From Gammaproteobacteria bacterium (GTDB lineage Bacteria; Pseudomonadota; Gammaproteobacteria; Tenderiales; Tenderiaceae), in NCBI GenBank assembly GCA_024277755.1, contig JAJRUN010000052.1, forward strand, positions 4,499 to 68,498: a stretch of 64,000 bases of DNA, read 5' to 3'. The notes under the pieces were generated by a model that saw only the letters and a list, made by a program, of their open reading frames with translations, was not told the DNA's origin and did no database searches. Of the stretch, positions 38,631 to 55,277 are shown in pieces. Position 1 is the stretch's first letter. Each line of letters opens with the position of its first letter. Both the position numbers and the translations under genes were made by a program.

Positions 38631-41415
38631 CAACCACCTCAATAATCAATTCCTGCTTGGCGTATTTCACCGGCAATAATTTTGCCAAGGTAGCAAACGA
38701 TTTGGCCACCCATTCGGTATACACCCCATCTCCAACACGATCAATATTCGACTCAAGAAACTTGATCGCCTGCTCTTCAAACGGATAAGCCTGTTCCTCA
38801 AGCATCATCTCATACTGCTCCATCTCTTCATCATCAAGCCCGGCAGGACGCGATGACTCAAGCAGGGCAATACTTAACTTAAAATATACCTCACCGATTC
38901 TACGATTTGCCGCCGTGACAAACTCAGCATAACCATAGCGGCTTGTTTTATCATAGGCCGCCAAAGCAAGTTCCATCTTCTTTTTCTTATTGGCAAGGTT
39001 TTTACGTAGCGGTTCAACCAATTTAATTAAATCAAACTCGATAAAACTTGCTTCAGCCAATATTAATGATGCACTGGCTGCATAGTATTGAATCACCTCA
39101 TTTTGCTGCGCCGCAACAAGTCCAGCGTTTTTAACAATCTGGTTCAGCCAATAATCACGCTTATCAAATTGACCAAGCTGTGTATAAATTTCCGACAACT
39201 GTGAACGCACATAAAACTTCTGCTCAGAGACACCGGGATATCGATACACATAGCGTTTATAAACAGCAATAGCCTTGAGTAAATGATTTACCTGTCGATA
39301 CAACTGGCCAGACTGTAGCAAGGCTTCTTGCTGGACGTCAGTATCCCGGCTACGATTGGCAATCTGCTCATAGGCATTAGCTGCATCCGCAGTCCTTTCC
39401 AATTTTAAATAGACATAAGCAAGCTTAACCGGAACCTCAGACTGTAATTCATGCCCTGGATAAGCCGTTTGAAATTTTTCCAGCAAGCCTGCTGCCTGAC
39501 GCCACTCTTCCATACCAATCAGCGCAGCTGCCGCATCATATTTTGCCTGGGCAACAAGTTTACTATTGGCCGCAACGGCCTCTATTCTAAGCAGATGTTC
39601 TACAGCCAGGCGCATCTCACCGCGTTCCAGAAAAGCCTCTGCCTGTTTATAAATAGAGGATGCCAGCCATTCCTCAGACTCGAGTGTCTGGCCACCCAAT
39701 TCACTCTGATAATTGAGTGCCCGCTGATAGGCCATTTCGGCCTGAAGAAAATCCTGATTCTGAAAACTGATATGCCCCACCATCATCCAGGCAGAAAAGG
39801 CATCCTCAGATACAAGTTCTTGAGGGCCATCTAGCAACAACTTAAGCAGCAACATCGCTTTGTCATTATCACCCCGATCAAAATCATCACTGGCAAGTGA
39901 CAACACTGTATTCGGCACACGCCGGTCATCAGGAAAATGAGAGATAAATTTCTGCGCACTCTGATGTAATCGTTGACGCCAACTATCTGCCTCACTCTCT
40001 ACACCGACCTCTAACTGTTTTTGATAGCTTAAAATGGCGCTATAAGCCGCCCCTGCTGCCCACTCATTATTTGGATAAAAATAAGCAACCTGTTCAAATT
40101 CGTCACCCGCTTCCTGATAGTGTCGGTTATCAAATAAAATTTCAGCAAATAAAAAGTGTTTTTCAACCGCATTAGCTTGCGAATGAAAATTTTTAAGATA
40201 GACCTGATACCAATTAACCGCTGCATTAAAGTCTGACTCCAGCTTGGCCTTCTGAAAACGCGCATGATAAAAGTCAGTCAAGTCATTCAAATAAGCCATG
40301 GCAAAATCAGAAATATAGACAGCATACTCAATAGAAAAACCAATCACTGTCTCGCCACGATACCAATGTTGATTAAGAAATTCTTCCTTGGCCTTTATCA
40401 CTTGCGTTTGATCATTAAGAACCCGATAAGCATCCACCAGCCTCAATTGAAATATAGCAGCACTGTAGGACTTCGGATAACGGGCGATATAGGCAGCATA
40501 GGTCTGCACTTCATCCAGATAACGCTCATCTTTATGATATAGCTCCGCCAGACTCTGAAAGATTAAATGAATGTGCTCTGCCTGAGCATATTTATGACTG
40601 AAATATTCTAACTCGTGAATATCATTTTTCAAGGCGAAAATTAAAGTCATACCACGCAGAATATCAGTCAGAATTTCTAGATCTGCCTTGCCAATATCAA
40701 TAGGTTTACCGTTGATCTGATCAAATTCAACCTGATCAAGTTTCAAATCAAGCAACTGAAAAAATGATTCCAGAGCATCATCAAATCGATCCTGTTTAAA
40801 AGCAGCCCAACTGAATTTGAGCAGGCTTTGTTCATAAAACGGCCTACCCTTACCCTTCTCAACCACAACTGAATATAAGGTCGCTGCCTGATCGTAATTG
40901 CCATCCAGAAAGTTTAATTCTGCAATCCTGAAATTGGCTTCAGAAAAATAGCGACTATTTTGATGCTGGCTAACCAACCTTAATAACAGCTGAGCAGTCT
41001 TATCAATTTCACCCCGCTTGTCATAGACCCGGGCAAGTTGATAGAGAACCAAATCAGTCTCTGAATAATTAGGATAACTATTTAGCAACTCTTCGTAAAT
41101 TAAAATGGCCTCAGGGTATTCATTGATTTTCTCAACACCACTGCCATCTGCCTGTTTTATTTCACGCTGCTCACCATAATCCAGCAACAAATCAGCAAGC
41201 CGATGCATGGCTTGTGGCCGAAACGGGTTATCAACAGAAAACACCAACAACTGCCGATAAGATTTAATTGTTTCAAGTGGCGAAATTTGCAACGGTTGTT
41301 GCCTATCAGGCTTTACATCAGTACCTTCAAGCTCAGACAGTGTCACACCAGAATATTTTGAACTGCTGCAAGCAACAAGAAAGAGAACCATCATCCCAAT
41401 GAACAAGGGTTTCAC
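38617..41415 (-). CDS. large TPR-repeat lipoprotein (932 aa)
   Basis: Signal/lipobox MMVLFLVACSS; numerous TPR-like repeats throughout. Size and architecture resemble PEP-CTERM-type TPR lipoproteins, but no exosortase is present here. Confidence 0.6.
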   Translation of the reverse strand: MKPLFIGMMVLFLVACSSSKYSGVTLSELEGTDVKPDRQQPLQISPLETIKSYRQLLVFSVDNPFRPQAMHRLADLLLDYGEQREIKQADGSGVEKINEYPEAILIYEELLNSYPNYSETDLVLYQLARVYDKRGEIDKTAQLLLRLVSQHQNSRYFSEANFRIAELNFLDGNYDQAATLYSVVVEKGKGRPFYEQSLLKFSWAAFKQDRFDDALESFFQLLDLKLDQVEFDQINGKPIDIGKADLEILTDILRGMTLIFALKNDIHELEYFSHKYAQAEHIHLIFQSLAELYHKDERYLDEVQTYAAYIARYPKSYSAAIFQLRLVDAYRVLNDQTQVIKAKEEFLNQHWYRGETVIGFSIEYAVYISDFAMAYLNDLTDFYHARFQKAKLESDFNAAVNWYQVYLKNFHSQANAVEKHFLFAEILFDNRHYQEAGDEFEQVAYFYPNNEWAAGAAYSAILSYQKQLEVGVESEADSWRQRLHQSAQKFISHFPDDRRVPNTVLSLASDDFDRGDNDKAMLLLKLLLDGPQELVSEDAFSAWMMVGHISFQNQDFLQAEMAYQRALNYQSELGGQTLESEEWLASSIYKQAEAFLERGEMRLAVEHLLRIEAVAANSKLVAQAKYDAAAALIGMEEWRQAAGLLEKFQTAYPGHELQSEVPVKLAYVYLKLERTADAANAYEQIANRSRDTDVQQEALLQSGQLYRQVNHLLKAIAVYKRYVYRYPGVSEQKFYVRSQLSEIYTQLGQFDKRDYWLNQIVKNAGLVAAQQNEVIQYYAASASLILAEASFIEFDLIKLVEPLRKNLANKKKKMELALAAYDKTSRYGYAEFVTAANRRIGEVYFKLSIALLESSRPAGLDDEEMEQYEMMLEEQAYPFEEQAIKFLESNIDRVGDGVYTEWVAKSFATLAKLLPVKYAKQELIIEVVDDLH

Positions 41416-43295
41416 TGACCGTCCTCATCAATCTTCAGATTAATATCGTAAATATGCGCGACTGAGAGCAGTGCTTGAGAACGATATATTTCAATTTTTT
41501 CTTTAACTACAACCAGCTCATCAACAAGCATGGAATGCAAATAAGCATCATACTGTTGCAGTAAAGAATCAACCTGATCCGCTGCTGTTTTCAGCTGCTG
41601 GGCGACAGTCGCCAACCGCTGCCTATGGCCATCGTAGTTCTGCGGCAGGGACTTTATGATTTCTTTTATATTTCTTTTATATTGATCAGCGTGACTGTTT
41701 TTCTTTTCTAACTCAGACAGATTATTTTTTATATTTCTAAGTCGAATTTTATAACGGGTCATCAAATCCCACTTTAACAACCCAGCCAGCAGACGATTTT
41801 TATGCTGCAGATCCGCCATTCGACCAAGCAGTTCTGCAGGTTTTAGTTTTCCTTCGAAATTTTCAAGGCTATATGTAATCCGCTCATTTACACGACGAAA
41901 CTGATGCAAGTTTTTCAGCTCAGTAGAATCAGCAAGCGCCAGGGCGTCCTCATCCATTTCTATCACCGAAATTCTGGCAGAAAACACCTGAATGGCCTTA
42001 CTGTGATTCTGCTCTGACAACTGTTTAAGCCTGTCCATGGCCCTTGGCTTAAGTTCGGAATTGGCCGAAACTTTCACATCAACAATATCATCAAAGACAT
42101 GAATGCTTGTCAGCCATTTACCCAGGTTTTTTTTAATAAACAGTAAATCCCGATAATTTTTCAGGCTCTCCTGAAATTTATGACTAGAGATAAATTCCAG
42201 AATATATGGGCTCTGCAATACCCCCTCCAACACATCATGCTGCCAGTACCAACCGATCTCATCGTCAGAATCAAGTTCGACCATAGCCAAAATCAATTCA
42301 GAAAAATCTGTTATTTCAAGCTGCTGATCAATCGAATTCAACTGCTGATGATACACATCAATGGCCTTTTTATATTCAGCCAACGAGTCCGAATAGTTCC
42401 CGGTTTGATATAACAAATATGGTTTGGCCAGATAGGCTTCAAGTATATTGACATCAATAGGCTCACGATCTGCCAGTTCAGACCAGGCCGTATTGGCAAT
42501 GGCAAACTCATTGATACCGAATGCCGACCAGCCTAGCCCTAACAAGGCTGGATTTGAAAATCGGCCATGCAATTCAATCTGGCCAAAATACTGACTAGCC
42601 AGCTCAAACTGTTGGTTTTTCAGGTGCAGGTTTGCTAACAACAAATTGACCCTATCAATCAAAGCTGCAGACTCCGCATCTTGCCTCGGCACTGCCGCAA
42701 CCTTATTCAGCAGCGTTATGGCTAATGCCTGATCACCCTGTTTGAGAAGTGAAATGGCTAGATTTGAACGGGCATAAACAGAGTTTTTATTTCCTTTGAT
42801 CTGTTTTTCTAAAAACTCAATGGCTTGCTCAACCTTGTTAATCTTCATCAAGCTAAGCGCCGTCAAGGTCAGGCGTTCATCTTCAAGCTTTCCAGGCAAT
42901 GGTAAAGTTATTTTTTCAAGATGATCATAGGCTAACTGATAATAGCCTCGCTGAAATTGAATCTTCGCCAGATAAAACCAGGCACGATCTCGCGACTGCT
43001 TATCAACCGCGGTCTCAAGAACACGATTGAATATCTGTTCTGCATTTCGCTGCAGGCCATATCCCAGATATAAGCTGCCAAGCAAGGCCTTAGCCTCAAG
43101 AGCATCAACCGCCAACGTGCCTTGGCTCAGTCCCTTTTCAAGTTGAATAATGGCGCTAAAGAACTTTTGCTGGTTGAAATTAAACAGCACCTCGCCATAA
43201 AAAGGGCTGTTGACTCGTTGAACATCTGCCTTAATCGGAGTAATGAATAAACAGAATAACGTCAGCAGCAATACAAAAAACTGAATAACACCCAT
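41412..43295 (-). CDS. secreted TPR-repeat / coiled-coil protein (627 aa)
   Basis: Signal peptide; N-terminal TPR repeats; C-terminal long coiled-coil-like region (K/E/L-rich). Confidence 0.55.
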   Translation of the reverse strand: MGVIQFFVLLLTLFCLFITPIKADVQRVNSPFYGEVLFNFNQQKFFSAIIQLEKGLSQGTLAVDALEAKALLGSLYLGYGLQRNAEQIFNRVLETAVDKQSRDRAWFYLAKIQFQRGYYQLAYDHLEKITLPLPGKLEDERLTLTALSLMKINKVEQAIEFLEKQIKGNKNSVYARSNLAISLLKQGDQALAITLLNKVAAVPRQDAESAALIDRVNLLLANLHLKNQQFELASQYFGQIELHGRFSNPALLGLGWSAFGINEFAIANTAWSELADREPIDVNILEAYLAKPYLLYQTGNYSDSLAEYKKAIDVYHQQLNSIDQQLEITDFSELILAMVELDSDDEIGWYWQHDVLEGVLQSPYILEFISSHKFQESLKNYRDLLFIKKNLGKWLTSIHVFDDIVDVKVSANSELKPRAMDRLKQLSEQNHSKAIQVFSARISVIEMDEDALALADSTELKNLHQFRRVNERITYSLENFEGKLKPAELLGRMADLQHKNRLLAGLLKWDLMTRYKIRLRNIKNNLSELEKKNSHADQYKRNIKEIIKSLPQNYDGHRQRLATVAQQLKTAADQVDSLLQQYDAYLHSMLVDELVVVKEKIEIYRSQALLSVAHIYDINLKIDEDGQ

Positions 43296-43301
43296 GCCCC
43301 A

Positions 43302-43844
43302 TCATTCCCACTCTTTAACTAGAAACTTGGGCTGGTTTTTTTCTTGTGACTCTGAAATTTTCAGTTCAATGTATTTCGGATCAAATGTTTTTACAAAGAT
43401 ATAACTCGCTCCACGGCGATAGTCCCGACCATTGGGGCCTGTACCGGTAAAAATCACCACCACTTCATGCTCACCCTTTTTAAGGTTCTCAACATGAAGT
43501 TTCTGTACACCTCCTTTACTCAAGGCTTTGACCTCCCTGTCTGTATAGAGATAATTGCTCACAACTTTGCCATCGAGCGTCAATTTAATTGAATCCAGTT
43601 TGAAATAAGTATCACCTTCCATCGAAAGAAAAAAGAAGGTTTGCGTATTAACAGGAAACAGCAGCTCTTCTTCAAGGATAAACAGTTCTCGATTGATGGA
43701 AATAACGTCCTTTTTCAGGGCTTCAACTTGTTCATCAAGACTTTGAAATTCTTGTGTATCGGCAGCGGCGCCTATCACTGGCAACACAAGCATGCTCATC
43801 AAGCCAATTCCCAACCACCTCTTTTTATAAAACCAACTCATCAC
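43302..43844 (-). CDS. small secreted protein of unknown function (180 aa)
   Basis: Signal peptide MMSWFYKKRWLGIGLMSMLVLPVIGAAA; no recognisable family. Operonic with flanking genes (gaps 7-10 nt). Confidence 0.45.
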   Translation of the reverse strand: MMSWFYKKRWLGIGLMSMLVLPVIGAAADTQEFQSLDEQVEALKKDVISINRELFILEEELLFPVNTQTFFFLSMEGDTYFKLDSIKLTLDGKVVSNYLYTDREVKALSKGGVQKLHVENLKKGEHEVVVIFTGTGPNGRDYRRGASYIFVKTFDPKYIELKISESQEKNQPKFLVKEWE

Positions 43845-43853
43845 CAGAACTTC

Positions 43854-45440
43854 CTAAATCGTGCCATTAACTATCGGGGCAAAGGCGGTCAAACTATCCA
43901 GCATAGTGCTATTACCCAATCCATGGTTTGAAAATTGTGTTGCAAAACTACCCTGTTCACCATGCAGAGCCATGTAATTCAACGCGATGGTTTCAACAAG
44001 CAGATTGACATTATTGGCCGCCGGGCTTGAGGCCGTTTCTACCGAGGCGTCTGAACGAAAATAACCGATTTGCTGATGCCGCGCCTGCTGATCAGCATTG
44101 GCTCCGAGCAAGGAGGGTCGGCCACCTGGATTATAAACCAGAAAAAACGATGCGGCGGTGGATGAGTTATCCCCGGTCCAGACACCTTTTCCCCGCCCTT
44201 CAACTGAGTCATCAATCGTACCATTGCTCGCCACAGAACCATCACTGAAAACGTAAATCATCAATGGCATGCCAAGCCGTGCGGCATATTCAAGGCAGGC
44301 ACCAATACAACGACCGGCACGAAGATCACGTATTTCACCAACTGAGCGATTACCGGTATGGTAATCATAACCGCCCATGGTAATAGTGCCCGCACCTGCA
44401 AAACCGTTAACTACCAGTTTCATTACTGCAGCAGTTTTACGAAACTCGGCATCGCTATCCAGTTCAGCCTGCGAAAATATAGCACCAATAATATTGGGAT
44501 CAATATTCGGATTGAGTGCCGCCGGATCACCATAGCGATCCACCAGATCAGCCGCTTTAACGTAACCACAGTTGATCATATCTTTCAGCACAGCATCAGC
44601 AGTTATCTTGCTATCGACTCGCCCCAGTTTTTTAGCACTGATACGCTGAATTGATTCCAGCACCGCCACAGCATCATCCTGACTCAGCAAGCCAACCAGT
44701 TTTCCGGTATCAACCAGCCCCGTCACATCGCTGGGACGATCTATTTTGGTCGGCCGCACCGCACTGTTAATCATTGCCGCAGGTGCAACTGAGTTACCGC
44801 CAGAGTCAGAGCTGCGCGAACCAATCAGTGTCAACAATTCACCATCGGCTCCAGCCCTGTTAATGGCGTACATGGGGTTATGCGGATTATTGCCCGTATC
44901 ATTATCAGAGCGTGCCGGGATCACTGCACCATTAACACCGGCATGGGTCGACACTGACGTTCTCTCCAAAATTCCGCGCAAGAAAGCGCTGTCAGAGTGA
45001 AACGCCAAACCAAGATCGGTATTAATAAAATCGCGTGTACCGCTGTCTGCATTGGCGATGAATGGCGCCATGTCACCCGGCAGACCAAGCTTGTTGTAAC
45101 CCGCCGTAGAAAGAAAATCGAGCTGCCCTCCTTGTTGTCCCACCAGCACATTTGAACCACTGATGTTTGCGCCACCCGCCAGATCAAAACAGATAAACGG
45201 GATTTTTCCTGCCCCCTGAGCAGCAATGCCGCAACTCCCCTTCAAGGTCTCAAGATCAGCCGACAAGGCCGCCTGGGCTGTGCGTGGATTAGCAAACAAG
45301 CTGAAAATTGTCGGCCCCATGGCAAGCCCCAGCCCCGCGGTCAAACCTTGGGCAAGAAAGTCACGTCGTGTAACCGGCCGTTTGTGATTAGCGTGCAACA
45401 GTGGTGCATCAGGTGAAAGTAATCTGGATTTTCTCGACAT
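43854..45440 (-). CDS. TAT-exported DUF1501-like protein (sulfatase/alkaline-phosphatase-superfamily-like partner of PSCyt/PSD proteins)
   Basis: 528 aa; twin-arginine signal VTRRDFLAQGLTAGLGLAMG...AQA. Size and position immediately downstream of a multi-CXXCH PSCyt-like protein are typical of DUF1501. Confidence 0.55.
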   Translation of the reverse strand: MSRKSRLLSPDAPLLHANHKRPVTRRDFLAQGLTAGLGLAMGPTIFSLFANPRTAQAALSADLETLKGSCGIAAQGAGKIPFICFDLAGGANISGSNVLVGQQGGQLDFLSTAGYNKLGLPGDMAPFIANADSGTRDFINTDLGLAFHSDSAFLRGILERTSVSTHAGVNGAVIPARSDNDTGNNPHNPMYAINRAGADGELLTLIGSRSSDSGGNSVAPAAMINSAVRPTKIDRPSDVTGLVDTGKLVGLLSQDDAVAVLESIQRISAKKLGRVDSKITADAVLKDMINCGYVKAADLVDRYGDPAALNPNIDPNIIGAIFSQAELDSDAEFRKTAAVMKLVVNGFAGAGTITMGGYDYHTGNRSVGEIRDLRAGRCIGACLEYAARLGMPLMIYVFSDGSVASNGTIDDSVEGRGKGVWTGDNSSTAASFFLVYNPGGRPSLLGANADQQARHQQIGYFRSDASVETASSPAANNVNLLVETIALNYMALHGEQGSFATQFSNHGLGNSTMLDSLTAFAPIVNGTI

Positions 45441-45454
45441 TATCTTCTCACCCT

Positions 45455-47959
45455 CTACTGAATCAACATCACAGCACTACCCAGCATGGCAGCACAGCTT
45501 GCTTTAACCACCACCTCAGTACGACCCTCAGCACAATTACCACCACAGGCAGTCAGTTTTGTGATTAAAGCATCGAGTTCAGATGTCATATCCGCAACCA
45601 GTGGCTGGCTGTTCAAACCGTTACCGGCAATATTATTCAACAACGGCATAATCACCTTACTTCTGCCGCTGGTATCGAAGGCTACATTGACCCCGGCACT
45701 GAAATCAAAACCTGGAAAATAACTGGCACGCAGACCAGCATCATTAACCAGGGCATTACAGTATTCTATCGCCAGTTGCGAAATCGCTACCTGATGCGCA
45801 GAAAGAAATCCATCAATCGATTCAACCGTCGGCAACTGCTGTTTAACGGTTTCGTAGGTGGTCTGAACATCCGTCTGTGTCGTCGCAATGCCGGTCACAG
45901 CAGACATAGTGGCATTAATCTCAGAAAAGATGCGCAGACCAATATCAGCTTTAGCCTCACTGCTTGCTGATGGCGCCGGCTGTAACGGTTGCGACTCGAC
46001 ATAGACATTGCTTTTGCCAGCCAGCGTCTCAAAACTAAGAAAAAACTCATCCGCCGCAATTCCCTTTTCCAGCGGAATGATCGTCCCCAGCTCAGACAGC
46101 AGCTGTGCCTTGGCATTGAACTGGTCACTTTGAACAAACGAACCATTGCTAATGGTCGTATTCAAATTGGCATAGGCCTGACCAACCGCCGACTCTTTAC
46201 CGTTAATGCCAATACGCAAGCCAGCAATATTAAAACTGCCGGGTTCTACCCCAGTATCCAGACTGATAAACATGGGCCGACTAAACAGATAACTGTAACT
46301 ATCAAACTGACTCACTTCAAACAGAACATAACTTTCAGACACATCAACAACATGACCAACACTGAACAACAGAAAAAACTTTTCGCCCACACCAGCCTTA
46401 AAGTTCTTTTGAATCTGCGCCAAACTGAGGGCACGATTATGCACCGCTACCAGCCGCAGCTTACCCTGCCATGGGTGATCATTCGTGACCTCATTGGCCA
46501 GAATAAAAGCAAAAGTTTCATCCCAGTCGTTCAGGTTTCCCGGCTGCTGATCATCCAGGTCATCGGTAAAGACACCATTAACAAAGATACTGCGACCATT
46601 AACCGGATCATAGGTAATCACCACATGCTGTTCAGTGGCCTGCAAGTCTTCATCAGCATCAGCACTGGACAGAGCCGGTTCACCATTGGCATCAGTGCTG
46701 CTGCTACGATTTAAAAAATCATAGTTATATAAAGTCTGACCCAAGGTAAAGTTTCTGTCATTTGTCCCAGCTGAATAACTGATAATACGTGCAGGGCCTT
46801 CCTGATTGACATTGGCTGGCACCATCCAGGCCTCTATCGAGTATTCACCCGAGGCCTTGATAAAATCACTGAGTTTTTTACTGTCGCTAGTGGTGCCCTG
46901 AGCCTTGCTATTGACAAAATCAACCCCCCAACCACCCACCCATTTGTAATCAACACCTTCAGTACCCGATAACTGCAAATGCAAGGAAGGCGAGATACCG
47001 CTAACATCATAGATGGTGTTACCACTCCCCTGCTTAAATTCATACAGGGCAATGACATTCGCTTCATGACGACTGCCACCACTGGCGATACTGCCATCAG
47101 CAAGGGTTAAAGCTTTACTCAATACCAATTGTGGATCAACCTGCGTCAGTGCAATACCATTGGTAAAGTCATTGACGGCCTGTTCAATCTCGCTGGCATT
47201 GGCCTGGCAGTCGTTCCAGCAATTATGAAATTCATTACGCAAACGAACCACCAACCTGGAATTGGCCGGTGTGTCCAGATCTAACTTATAGCTGGTTTTA
47301 AGTGCATCATAGGCTGCCTCAACATCACTGCTTGAAAAATAAGGAGCCTGCGGAATCTGCGCTGACTCGGCATGACAATCGGCACAGTATTGCGTTAGTA
47401 AAGGATAAACCGTGGTTGAAAATAAACTGCTATCCGCAGGAAAACTTTTACTGTCACCGGCATCTTTGATCTGTGGTGCCAGCAGCACAATCTGTTTGCC
47501 AAGGCTGTCGCCAGCCCCCCCCAACCAGTTTTCAATATAGGCCGTCATAATCACAGCGCAGGCATTGCTGCTTGTCTCCCAGCAATTATGCCCGCCGGCC
47601 ACCTTGCTCACCAATCTTGAATTTGCCGGCACATCTAAATCAACAACACTAATCGCATCGCTATAGGCCAGATTAATATCATCACTGCGAACAAAGGTCG
47701 GCGATTGACCATTGCCGCCATGACAGTTGCCACACTTGGCCAGCAGATTGTCCCAAAGATTGGTTTTGAAACTTTGCACATCAGTGGTTGCCGGCTCTGG
47801 GCCGCTATAATTTCTAAGGCTGGTGTTTTCCGTCGCAACACCGGGTTCCAGCGGCACGTTATCACAAGCCATCAATAACAAACCAAACCACACAAACAGC
47901 AATGAGCGTATCAATTTATTCATCTTAATCGCCCTTGCAGTAGTCTGCGGTTTCGGCAA
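45455..47959 (-). CDS. secreted multidomain lipoprotein: two tandem CXXCH (planctomycete-cytochrome-C-like) domains + LamG/ConA-like domain + C-terminal domain
   Basis: Likely start MNKLIRSLLFVWFGLLLMAC (lipobox). Two about 110-aa repeats, each with CXXCH (CGNCH, CADCH), PANSRLV and HNCW motifs, then a LamG-like segment (EAWMVPANVNQEGPARIISYSAG...FVNGV). The DUF1501 gene follows. Confidence 0.55.
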   Translation of the reverse strand: MPKPQTTARAIKMNKLIRSLLFVWFGLLLMACDNVPLEPGVATENTSLRNYSGPEPATTDVQSFKTNLWDNLLAKCGNCHGGNGQSPTFVRSDDINLAYSDAISVVDLDVPANSRLVSKVAGGHNCWETSSNACAVIMTAYIENWLGGAGDSLGKQIVLLAPQIKDAGDSKSFPADSSLFSTTVYPLLTQYCADCHAESAQIPQAPYFSSSDVEAAYDALKTSYKLDLDTPANSRLVVRLRNEFHNCWNDCQANASEIEQAVNDFTNGIALTQVDPQLVLSKALTLADGSIASGGSRHEANVIALYEFKQGSGNTIYDVSGISPSLHLQLSGTEGVDYKWVGGWGVDFVNSKAQGTTSDSKKLSDFIKASGEYSIEAWMVPANVNQEGPARIISYSAGTNDRNFTLGQTLYNYDFLNRSSSTDANGEPALSSADADEDLQATEQHVVITYDPVNGRSIFVNGVFTDDLDDQQPGNLNDWDETFAFILANEVTNDHPWQGKLRLVAVHNRALSLAQIQKNFKAGVGEKFFLLFSVGHVVDVSESYVLFEVSQFDSYSYLFSRPMFISLDTGVEPGSFNIAGLRIGINGKESAVGQAYANLNTTISNGSFVQSDQFNAKAQLLSELGTIIPLEKGIAADEFFLSFETLAGKSNVYVESQPLQPAPSASSEAKADIGLRIFSEINATMSAVTGIATTQTDVQTTYETVKQQLPTVESIDGFLSAHQVAISQLAIEYCNALVNDAGLRASYFPGFDFSAGVNVAFDTSGRSKVIMPLLNNIAGNGLNSQPLVADMTSELDALITKLTACGGNCAEGRTEVVVKASCAAMLGSAVMLIQ

Positions 47960-49130
47960 ACACCTGTTTCAGATTGTAGTTACTGGCTTTAAACGAGCTA
48001 ACCGTGGCCTCGAACTGGGGCAAATCCGTATTAACAGGTTCACGCAGACAGACTGCCTTGAACACCTTTTTTACCTGACAACTGGCAAAGGCCTCAGAGT
48101 TAGCCAATTCAACGCCCATTGACTTGGCACCGCTGCCACTGGCCGCCAGACCTTGAGACTGAGTATCCCAACCCAATACAGCATTCGGACCATTACGCCA
48201 GTAGTTATCCCAACGATCATCAGGCGTGACGTAACCATATTTAAAGTTGTTAGCATTGATATGGTATTTTTTCTTTACTCGCGTCCCCGTATCAGGATCA
48301 ATCACACCAACATCGTTGTAGCTTAAGCGACCATTCTCAGCATCAGGATCCGCTTCACTGTCATATTCAAAGTTGTAATAGGCATAGGCCTGGGTCAATG
48401 GGTCCATACCGGCATGGCAACCAAGACAGGCATTGATAAAGAGACGGCTGTCACCCCCAGGACTGCGGGAAACATCCTGACGAACCCGGTCTGCCGCACG
48501 GGTAGCATCCTTGATCTGTTCAAGGTCGGTGCAAAGATGATTGAGAATAGTAAAGCGAAACATGGCACGGTTAGTGCCATCGATAAAAAAGGCCTTAGCC
48601 GCCGCACGTGTGGAAATCACCCCAGCAGTGGCATTCGCTGTTAAACCTGTTACCGATGATTGAGCCTTCTGCACCAAACCATTCGCTAGATTGACACCGT
48701 TTTTTTCCATGGCTTCATAGTGATCATTATTGGTATTTGAATATGCAGGCAGAGCCAGACTGTTATCACCAACATAAATCAAGTCGGCAGACAGTATCTG
48801 GCGAAAATCGATATCATCGCGCACCATACCGATGACTGTGGCACTGTAATCATTCAAAGGGGCAAATACAGTCTGCGCTTCATTGGTCCAGGGGGTAACA
48901 AGGTTTTTCAAGGTCACACTATAAAAGGCAGGGTGCTGCATGGCCTTATAGGCAGCCGAAATTGCATCACCTGCGTTAATATCTGCCGCCATACTTACTA
49001 GCGTTTCCTCATCAGCAGGCACCCCGGCAACTCGATCATGAATCCGTTTTGCCTGGTCACGGCTATCCGCCAGTGCGGACAAACTGATTGCAAAAGAAGC
49101 CATCAAAAAATATTTTAAATACGACGTCAT
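47925..49130 (-). CDS. secreted protein with single CXXCH motif (PSCyt-like)
   Basis: 401 aa, signal peptide; FINACLGCHAGMDPL heme-c-binding-type motif. First gene of the minus-strand operon. Confidence 0.5.
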   Translation of the reverse strand: MTSYLKYFLMASFAISLSALADSRDQAKRIHDRVAGVPADEETLVSMAADINAGDAISAAYKAMQHPAFYSVTLKNLVTPWTNEAQTVFAPLNDYSATVIGMVRDDIDFRQILSADLIYVGDNSLALPAYSNTNNDHYEAMEKNGVNLANGLVQKAQSSVTGLTANATAGVISTRAAAKAFFIDGTNRAMFRFTILNHLCTDLEQIKDATRAADRVRQDVSRSPGGDSRLFINACLGCHAGMDPLTQAYAYYNFEYDSEADPDAENGRLSYNDVGVIDPDTGTRVKKKYHINANNFKYGYVTPDDRWDNYWRNGPNAVLGWDTQSQGLAASGSGAKSMGVELANSEAFASCQVKKVFKAVCLREPVNTDLPQFEATVSSFKASNYNLKQVFAETADYCKGD

Positions 49131-49369: not shown

Positions 49370-52033
49370 ATGAGTTTCAGAATTTACCGAAACGAAAAAA
49401 ATATAGCAGTGATTTTTACACTTTGCTTAAGCAGCCTGCTGTACGGCTGTCTTGACCAGGCACAACAGCAGGATGATCCCATTGCTGTACTGCTTGATTA
49501 CCCTATTGCCTACGTCAAACGTCCCCTGCTATTGAACAGCCAAGGTGAACCAGCACAAATTGACCTGCTCGACCTGCAAGACTTCAACCCCGGTGCCGAC
49601 CTCTTTCTGCGTGATCGTGCCTCACCCAGCGCACCGGAACAAAATATTACCTTTCGTTTTACTAATGGCCAAGGCGATGTAAAAGACCTCGAAAGCAGCG
49701 CCGATGGCAGCAAACTTATATTTTCAATGCGTGCAGCTGAGATCGAAAATGCCGATGAGGACGAACAACCCAGCTGGAATATTTGGCAATACGAAATTGC
49801 AACAGACACACTGACACGCATCATTGGTTCTGACATCACTGCCGAGGCTGGCGACGATATTTCGCCCGCTTATCTGCCTGATGGAAAAATTGTTTTTTCA
49901 TCCACACGCCAACGCAATGCAGGCGCTATTCTGCTTGATGAAGGCAAGCCACGCTTCACTGCCGAAACAGAGAGTCGTAATGGCCCCGCCTTTGTATTGC
50001 ACGTTATGGATGAAGATGGAGCCAACATAAAACAAATTTCATTTAACCAGAGCCATGACATTGACCCAACCGTGTCGCCAAACGGCGACATCATATTCAG
50101 CCGTTGGGACAACATGGGCAGCCGTAACAATATCAACCTTTATAAAATCAATGCCGACGGTACCGGACTGGAAATTTTGTATGGGGCACACAGCCATAAC
50201 AACGGCAGTGGTAATTCAAGCGTTCAATTGACACAAGCGCGTGAAATGACAGATGGCAAGATTGCCGTTCGCCTGACCCCCTTCCGTGGCACAAATGGCA
50301 GCGGCAACTTTGTTGCCATTGATATCGACAACTATCTCGATGCTGAGTTTACAAAACACAGCAACACCGCCAACACCGCAGGCTCAGGACAAACAAACCT
50401 GACAGGGCTAAATCTTTTTAGCGACAACAGCATCAGTCGCGATGGCTATGTCAGCGCCTTTTACCCGCTTTGGGATAACAGCAATCGCGCCCTGATTAGC
50501 TGGAGCCCTTGTCGTCTTATTGAGACAAATACCAATCAAACAGAAATAATTGTCCCCTGCACCAGCGAACGGCTGGCTGCTGCCGAGCCAGTCGCCGCCG
50601 CCCCCTTGTATGGCATCTACATCTACGATATGAACAACAACACCCAGCTACCCATTGTTACACCAGAGGAAGGCATCATCATTCATGACGTAGTGGCCAC
50701 CGATGAACGGCTGAGTTATACCCTGCTCAGCACCACCCTGCTTAACAGTGGCTTTGCCGATGAAGGTGTGGGCGTGCTTGATATTCGCAGTGTCTATGAT
50801 ATTGATGGTTTTGACACCACCACCAACAGCATCACCAGTATGGCTGATCCGGCACAAACAATGGCAGCACAACGCCCGGCCCGGTTTCTGCGCATCATCA
50901 AGGCCGTGCCCTTACCTGACCGTGACAGTCTCGACTTTGACAACAGCGCCTTTGGCCGCAGCAATCAATTGATGCGCGAAATCATTGGCTATGCGCCGGT
51001 TGAACCCGATGGTTCGGTCAAAGTAAAAGTTCCGGCCAATATGCCACTAGCCATCAGCATTGTAGATGCGAATGGTCGCCGCATCAGCGCCCGACATCAA
51101 AACTGGTTGCAGCTGCGTGCCGGTGAAAACAAACAATGCAATGGCTGCCATGACCACAACAGCGGTATTCCTCACGGCAATAGCGAAGGCCCCAACAGTG
51201 TGTATGGCGGTGCAGCACAAACCGGCAGCGCCTTTAAAAATACAGATAATTCTATAAGAGCTGAAGCCAACGAAACCATGGCCCAAACACTGGCACGCAT
51301 CAGCTGTGCGTCTGACTGTGCCTACCTGACACCAAGCGTCAATCCCCGCTTTATCGACAACTGGACTGACAGCAATATCCAGGCCAAGGATGAACCATTT
51401 TCATACCTCTATTCAGATATGACCACCACAGCGCCAACCACGGCAGCCTGCCAAACCAGCTGGACCCCCCTATGCCGTATCATCATCAATTACGAAACTC
51501 ACATCCACCCGCTTTGGTCCGCACCGCGCAGCATTTTAAATACGAACACTCTGCTCGATGAAGACCGCAGATGCAGCAGCTGCCACACCAACCAGGATCT
51601 TGCAGGCAATCCAATGCTGCCTGATGCCCAGCTTGATTTAAGTGATGGCCCATCAACTGACGAACCCGATCACTTCAAGTCTTACCGCGAATTATTGTTT
51701 GCAGACAACCTGCAAGAGTTGGTCAACAACAGCCTGCAAGACGTTATAATTCAAGACACTGACAATCAAGGCAATCTATTATTTGAAACTGACACAGAAG
51801 GAAACCTGATCCTGGGGCCGGATAACAACCCTGTACCGGTGATGGTAGCGGTGCCTGCAAACGGCCCCGCCATGTCAGCCAATGGCGCCAACAGCAGTTA
51901 TTTTTTCGATCGCTTTGATGCTGGCGGCAGTCACGCTGGCTGGCTCAGCAATGCCGAGCTACGCCTGCTATCGGAATGGCTGGATATCGGCGGCCAGTAT
52001 TACAATAACCCGTTTGACATTCCGCAGCCCTGA
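49370..52033 (+). CDS. lipoprotein with PD40/TolB-like beta-propeller repeats and two C-terminal CXXCH motifs (887 aa)
   Basis: Signal plus lipobox LLYGC; repeated (L/S)P(D/N)G(K/D)I(V/I)F(S)S(T)R-type PD40 motifs; CNGCH and CSSCH in the C-terminal third. Confidence 0.55.
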   Translation: MSFRIYRNEKNIAVIFTLCLSSLLYGCLDQAQQQDDPIAVLLDYPIAYVKRPLLLNSQGEPAQIDLLDLQDFNPGADLFLRDRASPSAPEQNITFRFTNGQGDVKDLESSADGSKLIFSMRAAEIENADEDEQPSWNIWQYEIATDTLTRIIGSDITAEAGDDISPAYLPDGKIVFSSTRQRNAGAILLDEGKPRFTAETESRNGPAFVLHVMDEDGANIKQISFNQSHDIDPTVSPNGDIIFSRWDNMGSRNNINLYKINADGTGLEILYGAHSHNNGSGNSSVQLTQAREMTDGKIAVRLTPFRGTNGSGNFVAIDIDNYLDAEFTKHSNTANTAGSGQTNLTGLNLFSDNSISRDGYVSAFYPLWDNSNRALISWSPCRLIETNTNQTEIIVPCTSERLAAAEPVAAAPLYGIYIYDMNNNTQLPIVTPEEGIIIHDVVATDERLSYTLLSTTLLNSGFADEGVGVLDIRSVYDIDGFDTTTNSITSMADPAQTMAAQRPARFLRIIKAVPLPDRDSLDFDNSAFGRSNQLMREIIGYAPVEPDGSVKVKVPANMPLAISIVDANGRRISARHQNWLQLRAGENKQCNGCHDHNSGIPHGNSEGPNSVYGGAAQTGSAFKNTDNSIRAEANETMAQTLARISCASDCAYLTPSVNPRFIDNWTDSNIQAKDEPFSYLYSDMTTTAPTTAACQTSWTPLCRIIINYETHIHPLWSAPRSILNTNTLLDEDRRCSSCHTNQDLAGNPMLPDAQLDLSDGPSTDEPDHFKSYRELLFADNLQELVNNSLQDVIIQDTDNQGNLLFETDTEGNLILGPDNNPVPVMVAVPANGPAMSANGANSSYFFDRFDAGGSHAGWLSNAELRLLSEWLDIGGQYYNNPFDIPQP

Positions 52034-52035
52034 CC

Positions 52036-52766
52036 ATGCCATTCATCCTCATCATGCTGCTATCACTCTGCACTGGTTATGCCCAGGCAGAAGACCGCTA
52101 TCGCAAGGCTCAAATAACAGAACCCTATATTGAATTGCACACCGGCCCTGGCCGTGGCTACCCGGTGTTTCATGTGATCGACCGTGGCGAATGGATTGAA
52201 TCCAGCAACGCAGAACCGACTGGTTCAAGGTCGTTGCCAGCAACGGCATCACAGGCTGGACCCATCAAGATCAACTACTACAGACACTAAACCCGCAAGG
52301 CCAACAGACCCGCTTTGAACAAATCGACCAGAATCAATTCAGCAAACGCAAAACGGAAGCCGGTGTACTCGGCGGTGATATGGATGGCGCTCAAACCATA
52401 ACGCTTTACGCTGCTTACCGGTTCACCCAAAACCTGTCCAGCGAGTTTTCATTTATGCAAGCAGTGGGCAACTACTCCAACAACCTGATCACCAATATCA
52501 ACCTGCTCAACCAGCCCTTTCCAAACTGGCGAATATCGCCATATTTTGCCCTAGGCATGGGCAATATCAAGACCACACCAAGAGCAACCCTGGTACTGGC
52601 CAAAGACCGCAGCGATCTGCTGGCCCATTTCGGCATCGGTGCATACGGCTACATATCCAGCCGCTTTGCCCTGCGCGCCGAATATAATCGCTACGTGGTC
52701 TTTTCCAGCAATGATGACAATGAGGACATAAACGAATGGAAAATCGGACTGGTCACTTTTTTCTAG
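52036..52766 (+). CDS. SH3b-domain + outer-membrane beta-barrel protein, apparently split by a 1-nt frameshift near 52200
   Basis: ORF 52036-52290 gives signal peptide + SH3b start (YIELHTGPGRGYPVFHVIDRGEWIE). The SH3b end (TDWFKVVASNGITGWTHQDQL) continues in the -1 frame from about 52200 with no stop, into ORF 52380-52766, an OMP barrel ending in GLVTFF. Confidence 0.5.
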
Positions 52767-53383
52767 CCTCAGTGCTGCTCATCGTCAGCCTGATGCCCGG
52801 CACAGCCAGGGCCGAAACAGACACGCCTATTCAAGTGATCAATCCCAGTCTCGAACGGGAGCCTGTCAAACCTGCCCGTATCGACACGGAAAATTTCGAG
52901 CTAGGCGTCTATGTCGGCACACTCAGCATTGAGGACTTTGGCACCAGCACTGTCACCGGGGCGCGGCTGGCCTATCATTTCAGTGAAGACTTTTTTGCCG
53001 AAGCCGTTTATGGTCAGGCCACTGCCGGCGACACCAGCTTCGAACGTCTTAGCGGCTCGGTACAACTGCTCACCGATGCAGAACGCGATCTAAGCTATTA
53101 CAATATCTCCTTTGGTTTTAATATCCTGCCCGGCGAAGCCTTTGTGGGCAGTGGCCGCGCCTTTTACACCGCACTCTATCTGGTAGCAGGCACCGGCAGC
53201 ACCAAATTCGGTGGTGATAAGCGTCACACCCTAAACATGGGGTTTGGCTATCGTTTCATTTTTAATGACTGGCTTGCCGGACACCTGGATGCCCGTGACC
53301 ATATCTTCGACATCGACCTGCTGGGCAGCAACAAGACCAGCCACAACCTTGAAGTCAGCACCGGTCTGACACTGTTTTTCTAA
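52736..53383 (+). CDS. outer-membrane beta-barrel protein (OmpA-N/OmpW-like small barrel)
   Basis: 215 aa; signal peptide ...MPGTARA; alternating amphipathic beta-strands; C-terminal GLTLFF. Confidence 0.55.
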   Translation: MENRTGHFFLASVLLIVSLMPGTARAETDTPIQVINPSLEREPVKPARIDTENFELGVYVGTLSIEDFGTSTVTGARLAYHFSEDFFAEAVYGQATAGDTSFERLSGSVQLLTDAERDLSYYNISFGFNILPGEAFVGSGRAFYTALYLVAGTGSTKFGGDKRHTLNMGFGYRFIFNDWLAGHLDARDHIFDIDLLGSNKTSHNLEVSTGLTLFF

Positions 53384-53397
53384 TCCTGGAGTTAGAC

Positions 53398-53901
53398 ATG
53401 AATTTATTTCGCACCCTTGGCATTACATTGTTATCCCTGACGCTTGGACTGGCAGCACTGCCCAGTCAGGCCGAAGACAAAATGCCCGCCCCGGACTTCA
53501 CCCTGAAAAGCCATAGCGGCAAAAACATCAAACTCAGTGAATTACGCGGTGATGTGGTGATGATCAATTTTTGGGCCTCGTGGTGTGGCCCCTGCTTGCT
53601 GGAAATGCCTGCCCTGGAACAAATTCATCAACGCTACAAAGACCTTGGTTTTACCCTGTTAGGCGTTAATGTTGAGCAAGATATCAGCGAGGCAAAGGCC
53701 TATTTGAAAAAGGTCAATGTCAGCTTTCCGATTTTGTTTGATATCACCAATCAGGTCAGCGACGAATATGAAATCAGTGGTATGCCGACCACCTACCTGG
53801 TTGACCGTGACGGTAATCTGCGAAAACTTTACATTGGCTACCAACCCGGTACCTCAGAAGAGGTTTACATGCGAGAAATCAAAACCTTGCTAAAAGAATA
53901 A
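53398..53901 (+). CDS. periplasmic TlpA/ResA/DsbE-like thiol:disulfide oxidoreductase (redoxin)
   Basis: 167 aa; signal peptide; WASWCGPC active site; redoxin-fold layout. Confidence 0.8.
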   Translation: MNLFRTLGITLLSLTLGLAALPSQAEDKMPAPDFTLKSHSGKNIKLSELRGDVVMINFWASWCGPCLLEMPALEQIHQRYKDLGFTLLGVNVEQDISEAKAYLKKVNVSFPILFDITNQVSDEYEISGMPTTYLVDRDGNLRKLYIGYQPGTSEEVYMREIKTLLKE

Positions 53902-53902
53902 A

Positions 53903-54121
53903 ATGGCCAGAACCATCGCCACAACCTGCCTATTGCTAGTGCTTGGTGGCTGCTCAATTCAGCCCTGGGTCAAGCCTTATGAACGGGCCAGGTTAGCCGA
54001 CCCCATCATGAGTTTTAATCGTGACCCTATTTCATCAAGTTATATCAATCATGTCTATCAAGCACGTGAAGGTGCCCGCGGTGCAGAAAACGGACAAGGT
54101 GGTGGCTGTGGCTGTAATTAG
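53903..54121 (+). CDS. DUF4266-family small lipoprotein
   Basis: 72 aa; lipobox LVLGGC; P-W-x-(K/R)-P-x-E-R motif; diagnostic C-terminus GQGGGCGCN. Confidence 0.7.
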   Translation: MARTIATTCLLLVLGGCSIQPWVKPYERARLADPIMSFNRDPISSSYINHVYQAREGARGAENGQGGGCGCN

Positions 54122-55277
54122 AATCAACAACAAACATCTCAGTAAAATTGTTGCCGCTACCATCGCACTTGGCATCACCTTTCCATTGATGGCCGCTATT
54201 CTGCCCGCTGATCGTTTCGATGCCCTGGTGCACTCCTATAATGGCGGCGGCATGGAGATTAATGGCCCCTCACTATTGATTCGCAAAATGCTTGGCACCA
54301 GCACCTCGGTGTCGGCCAATTATTATATCGACTCCATCAGCAGCGCATCGATTGATGTCATCACCTCCGCCAGCCCCTATAAAGAAGAACGCAAGGAGCA
54401 CTCGGTCGGTATCGAATATTTGCATGATAAAAGCATCATGAGCTTTAACTACAGCAACAGTAAAGAAAATGACTACCAGGCAAAAACCTACAGCGTAAGC
54501 ATATCGCAGGATTTTTTTGGCGACCTGACCACCCTGTCCATGGGTTATGCCCGTGGCGATGACATAGTGCAACGCATCGTCAACACCCCCACGGGAAAAA
54601 CCCTTGACCTGAACTTTGGCAGCAAAAATACAGACCGGCAAAACTTCCGTCTCGGACTGTCACAAATACTCAGCAAACAAATGATACTGGGGCTGAACTA
54701 CGAGTTAATCACCGACAAGGGTTTTCTCAACAACCCCTATCGTCAGGTTCGTTTTGCCGATGGCAGTAAGGCCTTTGAAATCTATCCCAACACTCGCTCA
54801 AGCAATGCAGTATCAGCACAACTTAAATACTACCTCCCCTACCGCGCCGCACTCACGGGCGAGTTAGGGGTTTTTAATGATACTTGGTCCATTAACGCCA
54901 GCCACCTGAAATTAGCCTACAGTCACCCCCTTAAAAACGATTGGCTCATCGACCTGCGCTATCGTTATTATGACCAAAGTCGTGCCAGCTTTTACAGCGA
55001 CCTCTTTAGCGCGCCAGGGGCACAAACCTATATGGCACGAGATAAAGAACTCAGCAGTTTCAACAATCAAACCATTGGCTTTAGTGTCAGTTATGATCTG
55101 TCTCAACATGGCTGGAAACGGGTAGACAAAGGCAGCATCAACCTTGCCTTTGATCACATGATATTTGATTATCAGGACTTCAGGGATGCCTCGGTCGAGG
55201 GTGGCGAGATTGGCGCAGAACCGCTCTACAGCTTTTCCAGCAACGTGATACAGATGTACCTATCCATCTGGTATTGA
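54104..55277 (+). CDS. DUF3570-family protein (predicted outer-membrane beta-barrel), partner of DUF4266
   Basis: About 390 aa. Probable GTG start overlapping the DUF4266 stop gives a signal peptide (...KHLSKIVAATIALGITFPLMAA); ORF track shows the longer 54021 start. Beta-strand-rich; C-terminal aromatic residues. Confidence 0.55.

Follow-up and report, generated by a model that had tools for sequence, protein, structure and literature searches.

The gene considered here, g822, lies on the reverse strand of a 64,000-nucleotide stretch of contig JAJRUN010000052.1, from a gammaproteobacterial genome of the family Tenderiaceae (assembly GCA_024277755.1). This whole stretch is called the window, and all positions are given within it. 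The g822 product is a predicted lipoprotein in which two tandem domains, each carrying a CxxCH and an HNCW motif, are followed by a LamG/concanavalin-like domain and a cysteine-containing C-terminal half. Profile comparisons place the tandem domains in the PSCyt1 lineage of c-type cytochromes, and one haem is predicted for each.

The g822 gene and its duplicated domain

The open reading frame (ORF) at 45455..47959 on the reverse strand, read as an 834-aa lipoprotein in the original prediction, does exist, but its TTG start falls within the upstream gene g401, whose stop codon is at 47925-47927. Translation from the ATG at 47923 (reverse strand) gives an 822-aa product with 100% the same sequence and length as database protein P0001, and this ATG, not the TTG, is likely the true start of g822; the length of 834 aa is corrected accordingly. 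The g401 stop and the g822 ATG are 1 nt apart, a spacing that suggests translational coupling. Residue numbers refer to the 822-aa protein, and adding 12 converts them to the numbering of the 834-aa ORF. The parts of g822 are given below with the basis of each in parentheses, where HMM stands for hidden Markov model.

45455..47923, reverse strand: g822 lipoprotein gene, 822 aa (identical database protein P0001)
47864..47923, reverse strand: signal peptide and lipobox, MNKLIRSLLFVWFGLLLMAC, Cys20 (sequence reading; ortholog conservation)
47504..47788, reverse strand: repeat 1, residues 46-140, predicted PSCyt1-like c-type cytochrome domain of the HNCW type (BLASTP, Smith-Waterman, HMM 127.6 bits)
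47720..47734, reverse strand: CGNCH of repeat 1, predicted haem-attachment motif, Cys64/Cys67/His68 (119 of 119 orthologs)
47558..47590, reverse strand: HNCW loop of repeat 1, with His112 as candidate distal ligand and a predicted disulfide from Cys114 to Cys122 (conservation, Cys covariation)
47138..47440, reverse strand: repeat 2, residues 162-262, second predicted PSCyt1-like domain of the HNCW type (BLASTP, Smith-Waterman, HMM 117 bits)
47372..47386, reverse strand: CADCH of repeat 2, predicted haem-attachment motif, Cys180/Cys183/His184 (sequence, ortholog conservation)
47207..47227, reverse strand: HNCW loop of repeat 2, with His233 and a predicted disulfide from Cys235 to Cys239 (conservation, Cys covariation)
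46409..46891, reverse strand: LamG/concanavalin-A-like domain, residues 345-505 (Pfam PF13385, Laminin_G_3)
45458..46408, reverse strand: C-terminal half, residues 506-822 (conservation only; no Pfam match)

The N-terminus has the sequence hallmark of a bacterial lipoprotein, a predicted signal peptide ending in a lipobox Cys. The lipobox reads LLLMAC, and 118 of 119 orthologs retain Cys20, which is preceded by [AG]C in the alignment, while the residue at lipoprotein position +2 is variable (Asp in the g822 of the window, Gly in many orthologs). The lipoprotein call comes from this reading of the lipobox and the ortholog alignment, not from a dedicated predictor. The LamG/concanavalin-like domain that had been anticipated after the repeats is borne out by PF13385, which matches g822 above its gathering score (E 9.1e-17; 62 bits against a cutoff of 27.6) over profile positions 3-151 of 151 and is present in all 120 homologs listed. 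By sequence reading, residues 506-822 are beta-rich and then helical, and four Cys in the final 100 residues or so are invariant (722, 793, 797 and 810). The C-terminus itself (45458-45520) is invariant too, with the pattern ...C-A-A-x-L-G-S-A-x-x-L-x-Q, the end of which is conserved as ...LGSAVMLxQ. No Pfam model matches the C-terminal end (residues 664-834 scanned, in the 834-aa numbering), and hhalign gave no match between the C-terminal half and either the g401 profile or the PSCyt2/PSD1, PPC, DUF1501 and PSCyt1/WD40 proteins of a planctomycete-type cluster.

The proposal that the N-terminal part consists of paralogous tandem segments is confirmed. Repeat 1 and repeat 2 align by BLASTP at E 1e-14 to 2e-14 with 34-40% identity, their Smith-Waterman score is 122 against 26.9 +/- 4.8 in 2000 shuffles (maximum 58), and profiles built from 17 orthologs each match in hhalign at 99.3% and E 4.6e-20 over 91 columns. 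A lack of significant self-similarity in alignment statistics had been named beforehand as what would refute the duplication; with z = 20 the similarity is significant. All the motifs attributed to the repeats were found, namely CGNCH, CADCH, AY, DLD(V/T)PANSRLV and HNCW(E/N) followed by another Cys. The unit size of about 110 aa did not hold. An HMM of both repeats sets the boundaries of repeat 1 at residues 46-138 (127.6 bits; 58-150 in the 834-aa numbering) and those of repeat 2 at residues 162-260 (117 bits; 174-272 in the longer numbering), which makes the unit about 95-100 aa long with a linker of about 20 residues between the units. Chance or compositional similarity in place of a real duplication is refuted by the shuffle and profile-profile statistics and by the same motifs occupying matching positions in the two repeats of 119 orthologs, and retains virtually no credit. 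At the DNA level, the similarity left between the repeats is a single 37-nt stretch of 78% identity, and the order of a repeat-1 type followed by a repeat-2 type is found in 110 of 150 distant family representatives. With so little DNA identity left and the repeat order kept, the duplication is ancient and has been maintained by selection.

PSCyt1 homology and the candidate haem sites

In a scan of g822 against Pfam and NCBIfam, LamG alone scored above threshold. The PSCyt1 model (PF07635) matched neither g822 at E <= 0.1 nor any of 34 isolated repeats at E <= 10. The sub-threshold matches of the repeat sit at the CxxCH region and all belong to haem-c families (Cytochrome_CBB3, Haem_bd, GSu_C4xC__C2xCH, PccH and Cytochrom_C), and the weak matches in Pfam and the PDB are haem-c proteins throughout. 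Cytochrome_CBB3 is reached by 16 of 31 family members, with a best E of 2.7e-13. Sequence searches of the PDB with g822 and with the repeat profile returned nothing significant; the best match was a cytochrome c555 trimer at E 2.9e-4, in which three weak matches are summed, and FoxE was absent from the matches of the repeat profile.

The relationship to PSCyt1 becomes visible when profiles are compared. A reference set of 16 PSCyt1 domains was assembled, of which 15 came from metagenomes and one from the planctomycete-type cluster (L085), which contains DUF1501, PPC, PSCyt2/PSD1 and PSCyt1/WD40 proteins and was located via retrieved DUF1501 proteins. All 16 domains pass the Pfam PSCyt1 model (best E 9.9e-18), and about half of them also match Cytochrome_CBB3 and Cytochrom_C at 1e-6 to 1e-7. 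Against the profile of this set, the repeat profile aligned in hhalign at 96.2% and E 2.4e-9 over 84 of about 97 columns; taken separately, repeat 1 aligned at E 5.5e-6 and repeat 2 at E 6.1e-8. The controls, 30 column-shuffled profiles and one reversed profile, gave E >= 0.018. FoxE (5mab), a di-haem cytochrome of solved structure, is then reached from the PSCyt1 profile at E 2.1e-10, with matches to each of its two tandem domains. The profile homology to verified PSCyt1 domains and the link to FoxE point to the repeat as a divergent c-type cytochrome of the PSCyt1 lineage; judged by its sequence, it is a previously unmodelled branch of the PSCyt1 family within the c-type cytochrome superfamily. 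The earlier description 'PSCyt1-like' is therefore apt as remote whole-domain homology and inapt as a match to the Pfam model.

Residue conservation agrees with this assignment. A c-type cytochrome is recognised in sequence by a family-wide CxxCH in a Sec-exported protein; g822 has a predicted signal peptide, both of its CxxCH motifs are conserved in 119 of 119 orthologs, and the motif is kept in 303 of 304 ungapped instances of the wider family. Across the 119 orthologs, both repeats show 100% conservation of the CxxCH, of three HNCW residues (His, Cys and Trp) and of the Cys that comes next, and repeat 1 has no conserved Met. When 31 diverse family members are compared, invariance is limited to the two Cys and the His of CxxCH and the His of HNCW. 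The hallmark of PSCyt1 is CxxCH followed about 50 residues on by Met-Pro-Pro; the repeats have the CxxCH, with H-N-C-W in place of Met-Pro-Pro, and in the hhalign alignment the HNCW His falls in the loop that holds the PSCyt1 Met-Pro-Pro.

The wider family further separates the role of this His from that of the neighbouring Cys. Of 317 domain instances, 300 are ungapped at the HNCW His, and 299 of these have it. Both Cys of the pair are present in 265 instances, while 14 instances that lack the HNCW Cys also lack the downstream Cys and keep the His; the pair is shifted in two instances, and a single Cys occurs in five, mostly at fragment ends. The covariation of the two Cys has a Fisher p of 3.5e-17, which is only indicative because the instances without the pair come from about 10 related proteins. 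Joint gain and loss of the Cys, next to a nearly invariant His, is what would be expected if a disulfide held the ligand loop against the C-terminal helix. The same loss of the pair with retention of the His speaks against Cys as an axial ligand. Ligation of haem by His and Cys, known from TsdA and SoxA, was considered and rejected as the leading explanation, since the Cys pair has been lost together in several lineages that retain the His. The original prediction had left the choice between a haem and a disulfide module open; as far as the residue patterns indicate, it is probably both, with a haem site formed by CxxCH and the invariant distal His and a disulfide formed by the covarying Cys pair.

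An AlphaFold2 (AF2) model of residues 36-272 reached an overall predicted local distance difference test score (pLDDT) of 85.8, with about 90 in each domain and below 50 in the linker, and a predicted template-modelling score (pTM) of 0.50. In each domain, an N-terminal helix ends at the CxxCH and is followed by two short helices and a long C-terminal helix, and the His lies seven residues before the last helix. The order of these modelled elements is compatible with a class I cytochrome.

Operon, partner proteins and family distribution

The operon consists of seven closely packed genes, in which g401 comes first and g822 second, followed by g528, a 180-aa protein and three TPR proteins, with gaps of +14 to -26 nt (+9 to -26 nt within 38079..43844, which covers the 180-aa gene and the three TPR genes). 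A second group of genes runs divergently from it. The neighbours are as follows.

47925..49130, reverse strand: g401, secreted CLGCH protein resembling the PSCyt3/PSD2 type, upstream of g822 (PSD2/PSCyt3 matches; adjacency)
43854..45440, reverse strand: g528, protein with a Tat signal (TRRDFL), downstream of g822 (adjacency; weak alkaline-phosphatase-superfamily resemblance from a low-confidence model)
43302..43844, reverse strand: 180-aa protein (operon member)
41412..43295, 38617..41415 and 38079..38642, reverse strand: three TPR proteins (operon members)
49370..52033, forward strand: g887, divergent 887-aa lipoprotein resembling HZS-alpha (Pfam HZS_alpha E 5.5e-16, PD40 E 9e-10)
52036..55277, forward strand: genes past g887, encoding an SH3/OMP beta-barrel (frameshifted), a 215-aa OMP-like protein, and TlpA/AhpC-type, DUF4266 and DUF3570 proteins (scans, loci)
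53398..53901, forward strand: TlpA/AhpC-type thioredoxin-fold protein (general scans)
53903..54121, forward strand: DUF4266 (C-terminal GCGCN)
54021-55277, forward strand: DUF3570 (general scans)

Conservation across 82 loci is strongest for the genes flanking g822. g401 adjoins it in 80 and g528 in 78, the exceptions lying at contig ends. The HZS-alpha-like gene is kept nearby in 72 loci, the OMP-like gene in 64, DUF3570 in 62 and the TlpA-like thioredoxin-fold gene in 56; in the operon tail, the 180-aa gene is kept in 41 and the TPR genes in 24-37. The same trio recurs in a paralogous cluster elsewhere (L108 4171-12383 and L109 4321-12065), which pairs a g401-like protein (34% identity, E 5e-71) and a g528-like protein (32%, E 5e-60) with a multi-HNCW cytochrome of 1354-1460 aa and also holds a gene for a 188-275-aa product. 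That the trio is kept there strengthens the functional tie among g401, g822 and g528. The invariant operon partners, which the original prediction had not noted, are the strongest pointer to what g822 does.

The partners differ in how far they can be assigned. g401 has an invariant CxGCH, and PSD2 (DUF1585) is detected in 35 of 37 orthologs (best E 3e-7); the g401 of the window scores 17 bits against a PSD2 cutoff of 25.8, and weak PSCyt3 (DUF1588) matches occur in 4 of the 37 orthologs (best E 0.011). g528 carries the twin-arginine motif TRRDFL and shares 72-100% identity with its best 120 matches, and its orthologs occur in Alteromonas and Aliiglaciecola as well. The region ahead of the twin arginines is unusually conserved, with Pro13, His19 and Pro22 invariant. 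No Pfam match was found for 40 g528 orthologs, and no sequence match in the PDB. An AF2 model built from 40 close orthologs was poor (pLDDT 44.8); searched with Foldseek, it returned best 50 matches that all belong to the alkaline-phosphatase superfamily (iPGM, TAB5 alkaline phosphatase, MCR-1/EptC, PorX and sulfatases), at a best E of 5.4e-3. Compared by hhalign with a verified DUF1501 (PF07394) alignment, g528 matched in the Tat region only (E 1.7e-4), together with an 11-column GG[YW]D.H motif (E 0.13), while a more diverse g528 profile gave 42% and E 2.6e-4 over 351 columns in a greedy alignment. From these models, we give even odds to g528 having a weak resemblance to the alkaline-phosphatase superfamily and possibly being DUF1501-like. 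Its orthologs in NCBI and UniRef carry the name 'general secretion pathway protein GspF', which has no basis here, looks like a propagated misannotation and should be dropped.

g887 combines a PD40 beta-propeller with the middle domain of hydrazine synthase alpha and two CxxCH motifs, in a genome without sign of anammox. Its C-terminus, GGSHAGWLSNAELRLLSEWLDIGG, resembles by eye the HNCW loop and C-terminal helix of the repeats; the repeat HMM matched only its CxxCH region. Past g887, the 244-aa SH3/OMP gene (52036-52766, forward strand) is split near 52200, so that residues 1-56 and 57-244 are in different frames; the gene is intact in a close relative (L001), and the split reflects either a frameshift mutation or a sequencing error. 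By eye, the DUF3570 protein shows SSAS and TSAS and no [S/T]GA[S/T] site, and neither ApbE nor DsbD was seen among the ORFs scanned.

The remainder of the window is ordinary chromosome (dnaX, uvrB, pnp, infB, nusA, lepA, degP, rpoE/rseA/rseB and a gene for an FAD-binding_2 flavoprotein). Beyond the DUF3570 gene lie a double-receiver response regulator (55381-56181, forward strand) and a catalase (56254-57717), kept in 2 and 1 of the 82 loci, respectively, followed by a hybrid histidine kinase of 1522 aa with PAS/GAF and Hpt domains (58356-62924, reverse strand) and another response regulator (62952-63989, reverse strand).

Orthologs of g822 occur in at least 547 species-representative genomes, and the 80 ortholog genomes listed are all Gammaproteobacteria or unclassified Pseudomonadota. 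Among the hosts are sulfur-oxidising symbionts and cultured heterotrophs (Pleionea mediterranea DSM 25350, Aliikangiella and Lentisalinibacter); Ca. Tenderia, Sedimenticola, Ca. Thiodiazotropha, a tubeworm symbiont and members of the Woeseiaceae, Steroidobacteraceae and Cellvibrionaceae are listed as well. The number of clusters that the repeat profile matches among 1.84 billion representative proteins falls from 1,797 at E <= 1e-3 to 930 at E <= 1e-10 and to 170 at E <= 1e-30, with up to five matched stretches per protein. In the best 150 representatives (domain E 1e-5), HNCW copies number two in 135 proteins, three in 13 and four in 2, in a set that favours multi-copy proteins because scores sum over copies. 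Some family members join the HNCW domain with Big_9 and cadherin-like repeats (P0141, P0239).

A predicted di-haem arm and its known relatives

Our preferred reading, to which we assign a probability of roughly 0.6, is that g822 carries two c-type haems, probably with bis-His ligation and each secured by a disulfide staple, and that this di-haem part is the arm by which a LamG lipoprotein transfers electrons. In this scheme, g822 would be exported by Sec and lipidated at Cys20, and a cytochrome-c maturation system would place one haem on each CxxCH (Cys64/Cys67/His68 and Cys180/Cys183/His184). The sixth ligand would come from the HNCW His (His112 and His233), just before the C-terminal helix and in the loop of the PSCyt1 'MPP' Met, giving two low-spin bis-His haems; the HNCW Cys would pair with the Cys that opens the C-terminal helix, and this disulfide would staple the ligand loop. 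Ligand or partner binding would fall to the LamG domain and the C-terminal half with its Cys residues, both tied to the di-haem arm by a disordered linker. The arm could then pass electrons among the products of the cluster, namely g401 with its PSCyt3/PSD2-like CxxCH and the Tat-signal protein g528, and might itself be supplied by the divergent HZS-alpha-like haem protein and a thiol/flavin relay of TlpA, DUF4266 and DUF3570. The parts of this scheme differ in strength: covalent haem binding by the repeats is likely, bis-His ligation is slightly favoured, and the relay from g822 to g528 and g401 is a tentative proposal that falls somewhat short of even odds.

Several results weigh against the scheme. 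The Pfam cytochrome and PSCyt1 models stay below threshold on g822. Compared directly with single sequences, the repeat profile matches FoxE domain 2 and cytochrome c551 weakly (E 0.003 and 0.0014, respectively, at probabilities of 10-17%); the c551 sequence used agrees with its PDB entry. A Foldseek search of the PDB with the confident N-terminal AF2 model gave a best E of 4.7 and no solved cytochrome, FoxE included. In the hhalign alignment, the HNCW His lies three columns off the PSCyt1 Met. No cytochrome-c maturation genes were found among the larger ORFs scanned in the window, and the link of g528 to an enzyme superfamily comes from a model of pLDDT 44.8 and weak Foldseek matches.

The alternative that survives best, although we regard it as unlikely, retains both haems and changes how they are held. 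The tandem pair would be an intertwined functional unit like that of FoxE, in which His112 ligates haem 2 and His233 ligates haem 1. In its favour, the two tandem domains of FoxE are each matched by the PSCyt1 profile, and cross-wise ligation and a disulfide have been described for FoxE (PMC10654088). Such a unit could account for an apo AF2 two-domain model with a pTM of 0.50 and no match in the PDB, and it would suit the best 150 representatives, which all have at least two copies, exactly two in 135, mostly in the order of repeat-1 then repeat-2 type. That set is, however, biased to multi-copy proteins, and PSCyt1 is seen as a single domain per protein in the planctomycete-type cluster. In the AF2 model, each repeat is a helical domain complete in itself and the linker between them has a pLDDT below 50, and the repeat profile compared directly with FoxE gives the weak match noted above (E 0.003, probability 10%).

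It is much less probable that the repeats hold no haem at all. Each repeat would then use its four Cys and two His for two disulfides or a Zn, Fe or Cu site, with CxxC as a thiol-disulfide redox motif, and the likeness to cytochromes would be a relic. The lack of any cytochrome Pfam model at threshold and of a cytochrome in the Foldseek matches would be explained in this way, and the TlpA-like protein and the CXC motif of DUF4266 provide thiol-redox neighbours. However, the His directly after the CxxC is invariant in more than 300 instances, where a CxxC redox or disulfide motif would have no need of it; the second Cys pair is lost in proteins that keep the CxxCH and the His, which argues against the four Cys as one site; and the whole domain is homologous to PSCyt1, whose relative FoxE is a solved haem protein.

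A sensory role for the haem domains is, if anything, more improbable still. In that case, redox state or a small ligand would be detected by the haems or the adjacent disulfide, and the signal would be passed on by the LamG domain and the C-terminal part. A disulfide beside the presumed axial His would suit a redox-controlled ligand switch, and a response regulator and a hybrid histidine kinase are close by in the window. These regulators are not kept with the cluster (the response regulator in 2 of 82 loci), though, the Cys pair is dispensable in several lineages, and the conserved partners are haem or redox proteins and a Tat-signal protein rather than signalling proteins.

The preferred di-haem arm also admits a bolder version, quite unlikely on present evidence, in which the HNCW pair is a new di-haem unit with a redox-active disulfide by the axial His and possibly FoxE-like cross-ligation. 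The TlpA/DUF4266/DUF3570 relay would gate haem ligation or potential, and a periplasmic thiol pathway would thereby be coupled to haem electron transfer serving the possibly alkaline-phosphatase-like g528 in some oxidation or reduction of a LamG-bound ligand. If true, this unit would be the proteobacterial counterpart of the PSCyt/DUF1501 modules of Planctomycetes and Verrucomicrobia, whose function could then become open to experiment in culturable Gammaproteobacteria.

PSCyt and PSD proteins with Tat-exported partners are abundant modules of Planctomycetes and Verrucomicrobia whose function has been unknown since 2004 (PMC3542564; PMC5615132). Kamneva et al. (2012) described Tat-signal DUF1501 proteins with PSCyt1/PSCyt2/PSD1 modules, some with Laminin_G_3, and proposed electron transfer to unknown acceptors (PMC3542564), and He et al. 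(2017) reported carbohydrate-binding modules, including Laminin_G_3, in PSCyt genes, with nothing known of their function (PMC5615132). No publication was found on the gammaproteobacterial g401/g822/g528 cluster itself. It represents a divergent PSCyt-type version that current Pfam models miss and that is conserved across the species-level genomes counted above, and its locus physically joins a PSCyt-like module to an HZS-alpha-like haem protein and a DUF3570/DUF4266/thioredoxin cluster. With about 1,800 clusters at 50% identity that lack a cytochrome annotation, the HNCW domain merits a family model of its own, and the g822 cluster is possibly a more tractable way into the function of the whole PSCyt/DUF1501 class.

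The extent of the likeness varies among the known systems. Class I cytochromes c (c551/c552/c555 and the haem subunit of flavocytochrome c) resemble the repeat in size, in the helix running into CxxCH and in a sixth ligand placed before the C-terminal helix, but only the helix and CxxCH align (E 3e-4 to 0.01), the repeat lacks the Met ligand and has an extra predicted disulfide, and Foldseek finds no match. FoxE of Rhodobacter ferrooxidans (5mab/5mvo) is the sole solved relative reached, via the PSCyt1 profile, and is likewise secreted, with tandem PSCyt1-like haem domains and a disulfide. It differs in its Met axial ligands, described as crossing between domains with CxxCH/Met ligation (PMC10654088), in having neither LamG nor the C-terminal half, and in an operon with FoxY (a PQQ protein) and FoxZ.

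For the divergent genes, the closest parallel is the DUF3570/DUF4266/thioredoxin clusters, which Meheust et al. (2021), who showed that ApbE flavinylates DUF3570, describe as extracytosolic electron-transfer systems whose flavinylated and cytochrome components differ from cluster to cluster (PMC8238504). Genes of these three kinds stand beside the g822 operon in 56-62 of 82 loci, whereas the g401/g822/g528 trio is not described in that work (PMC8238504). In a few species, proteins with the JDVT-CTERM sorting signal adjoin DUF4266/DUF3570/TlpA genes as well (Haft, preprint; bioRxiv 10.1101/2023.06.07.544157).

The PSCyt/PSD and DUF1501 modules of the Planctomycetes-Verrucomicrobia-Chlamydiae (PVC) group are the nearest to the cluster as a whole, through the Laminin_G_3 fusion found in some of them, the pairing with Tat-signal and PSD2/PSCyt3-like proteins, and a function that is unknown in both. 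The g822 cluster differs from them in having no PSCyt2 or PSD1 detectable by HMM or hhalign and no clear DUF1501, in its gammaproteobacterial hosts and in its additional conserved HZS-alpha-like, TlpA/DUF4266/DUF3570 and TPR genes. At the level of the domain, PSCyt1 is collinear with the repeat through a helix, CxxCH, P-x-x-S-x-L, the ligand loop and a C-terminal helix ending in W-x-x-G, while the repeat has His-Asn-Cys-Trp and a second Cys in place of the axial Met-Pro-Pro, occurs in tandem and is missed by the Pfam model. What is new relative to the known PSCyt kind is the His that stands in for the axial Met, with an added Cys pair, the tandem duplication, the gammaproteobacterial hosts and the composition of the cluster.

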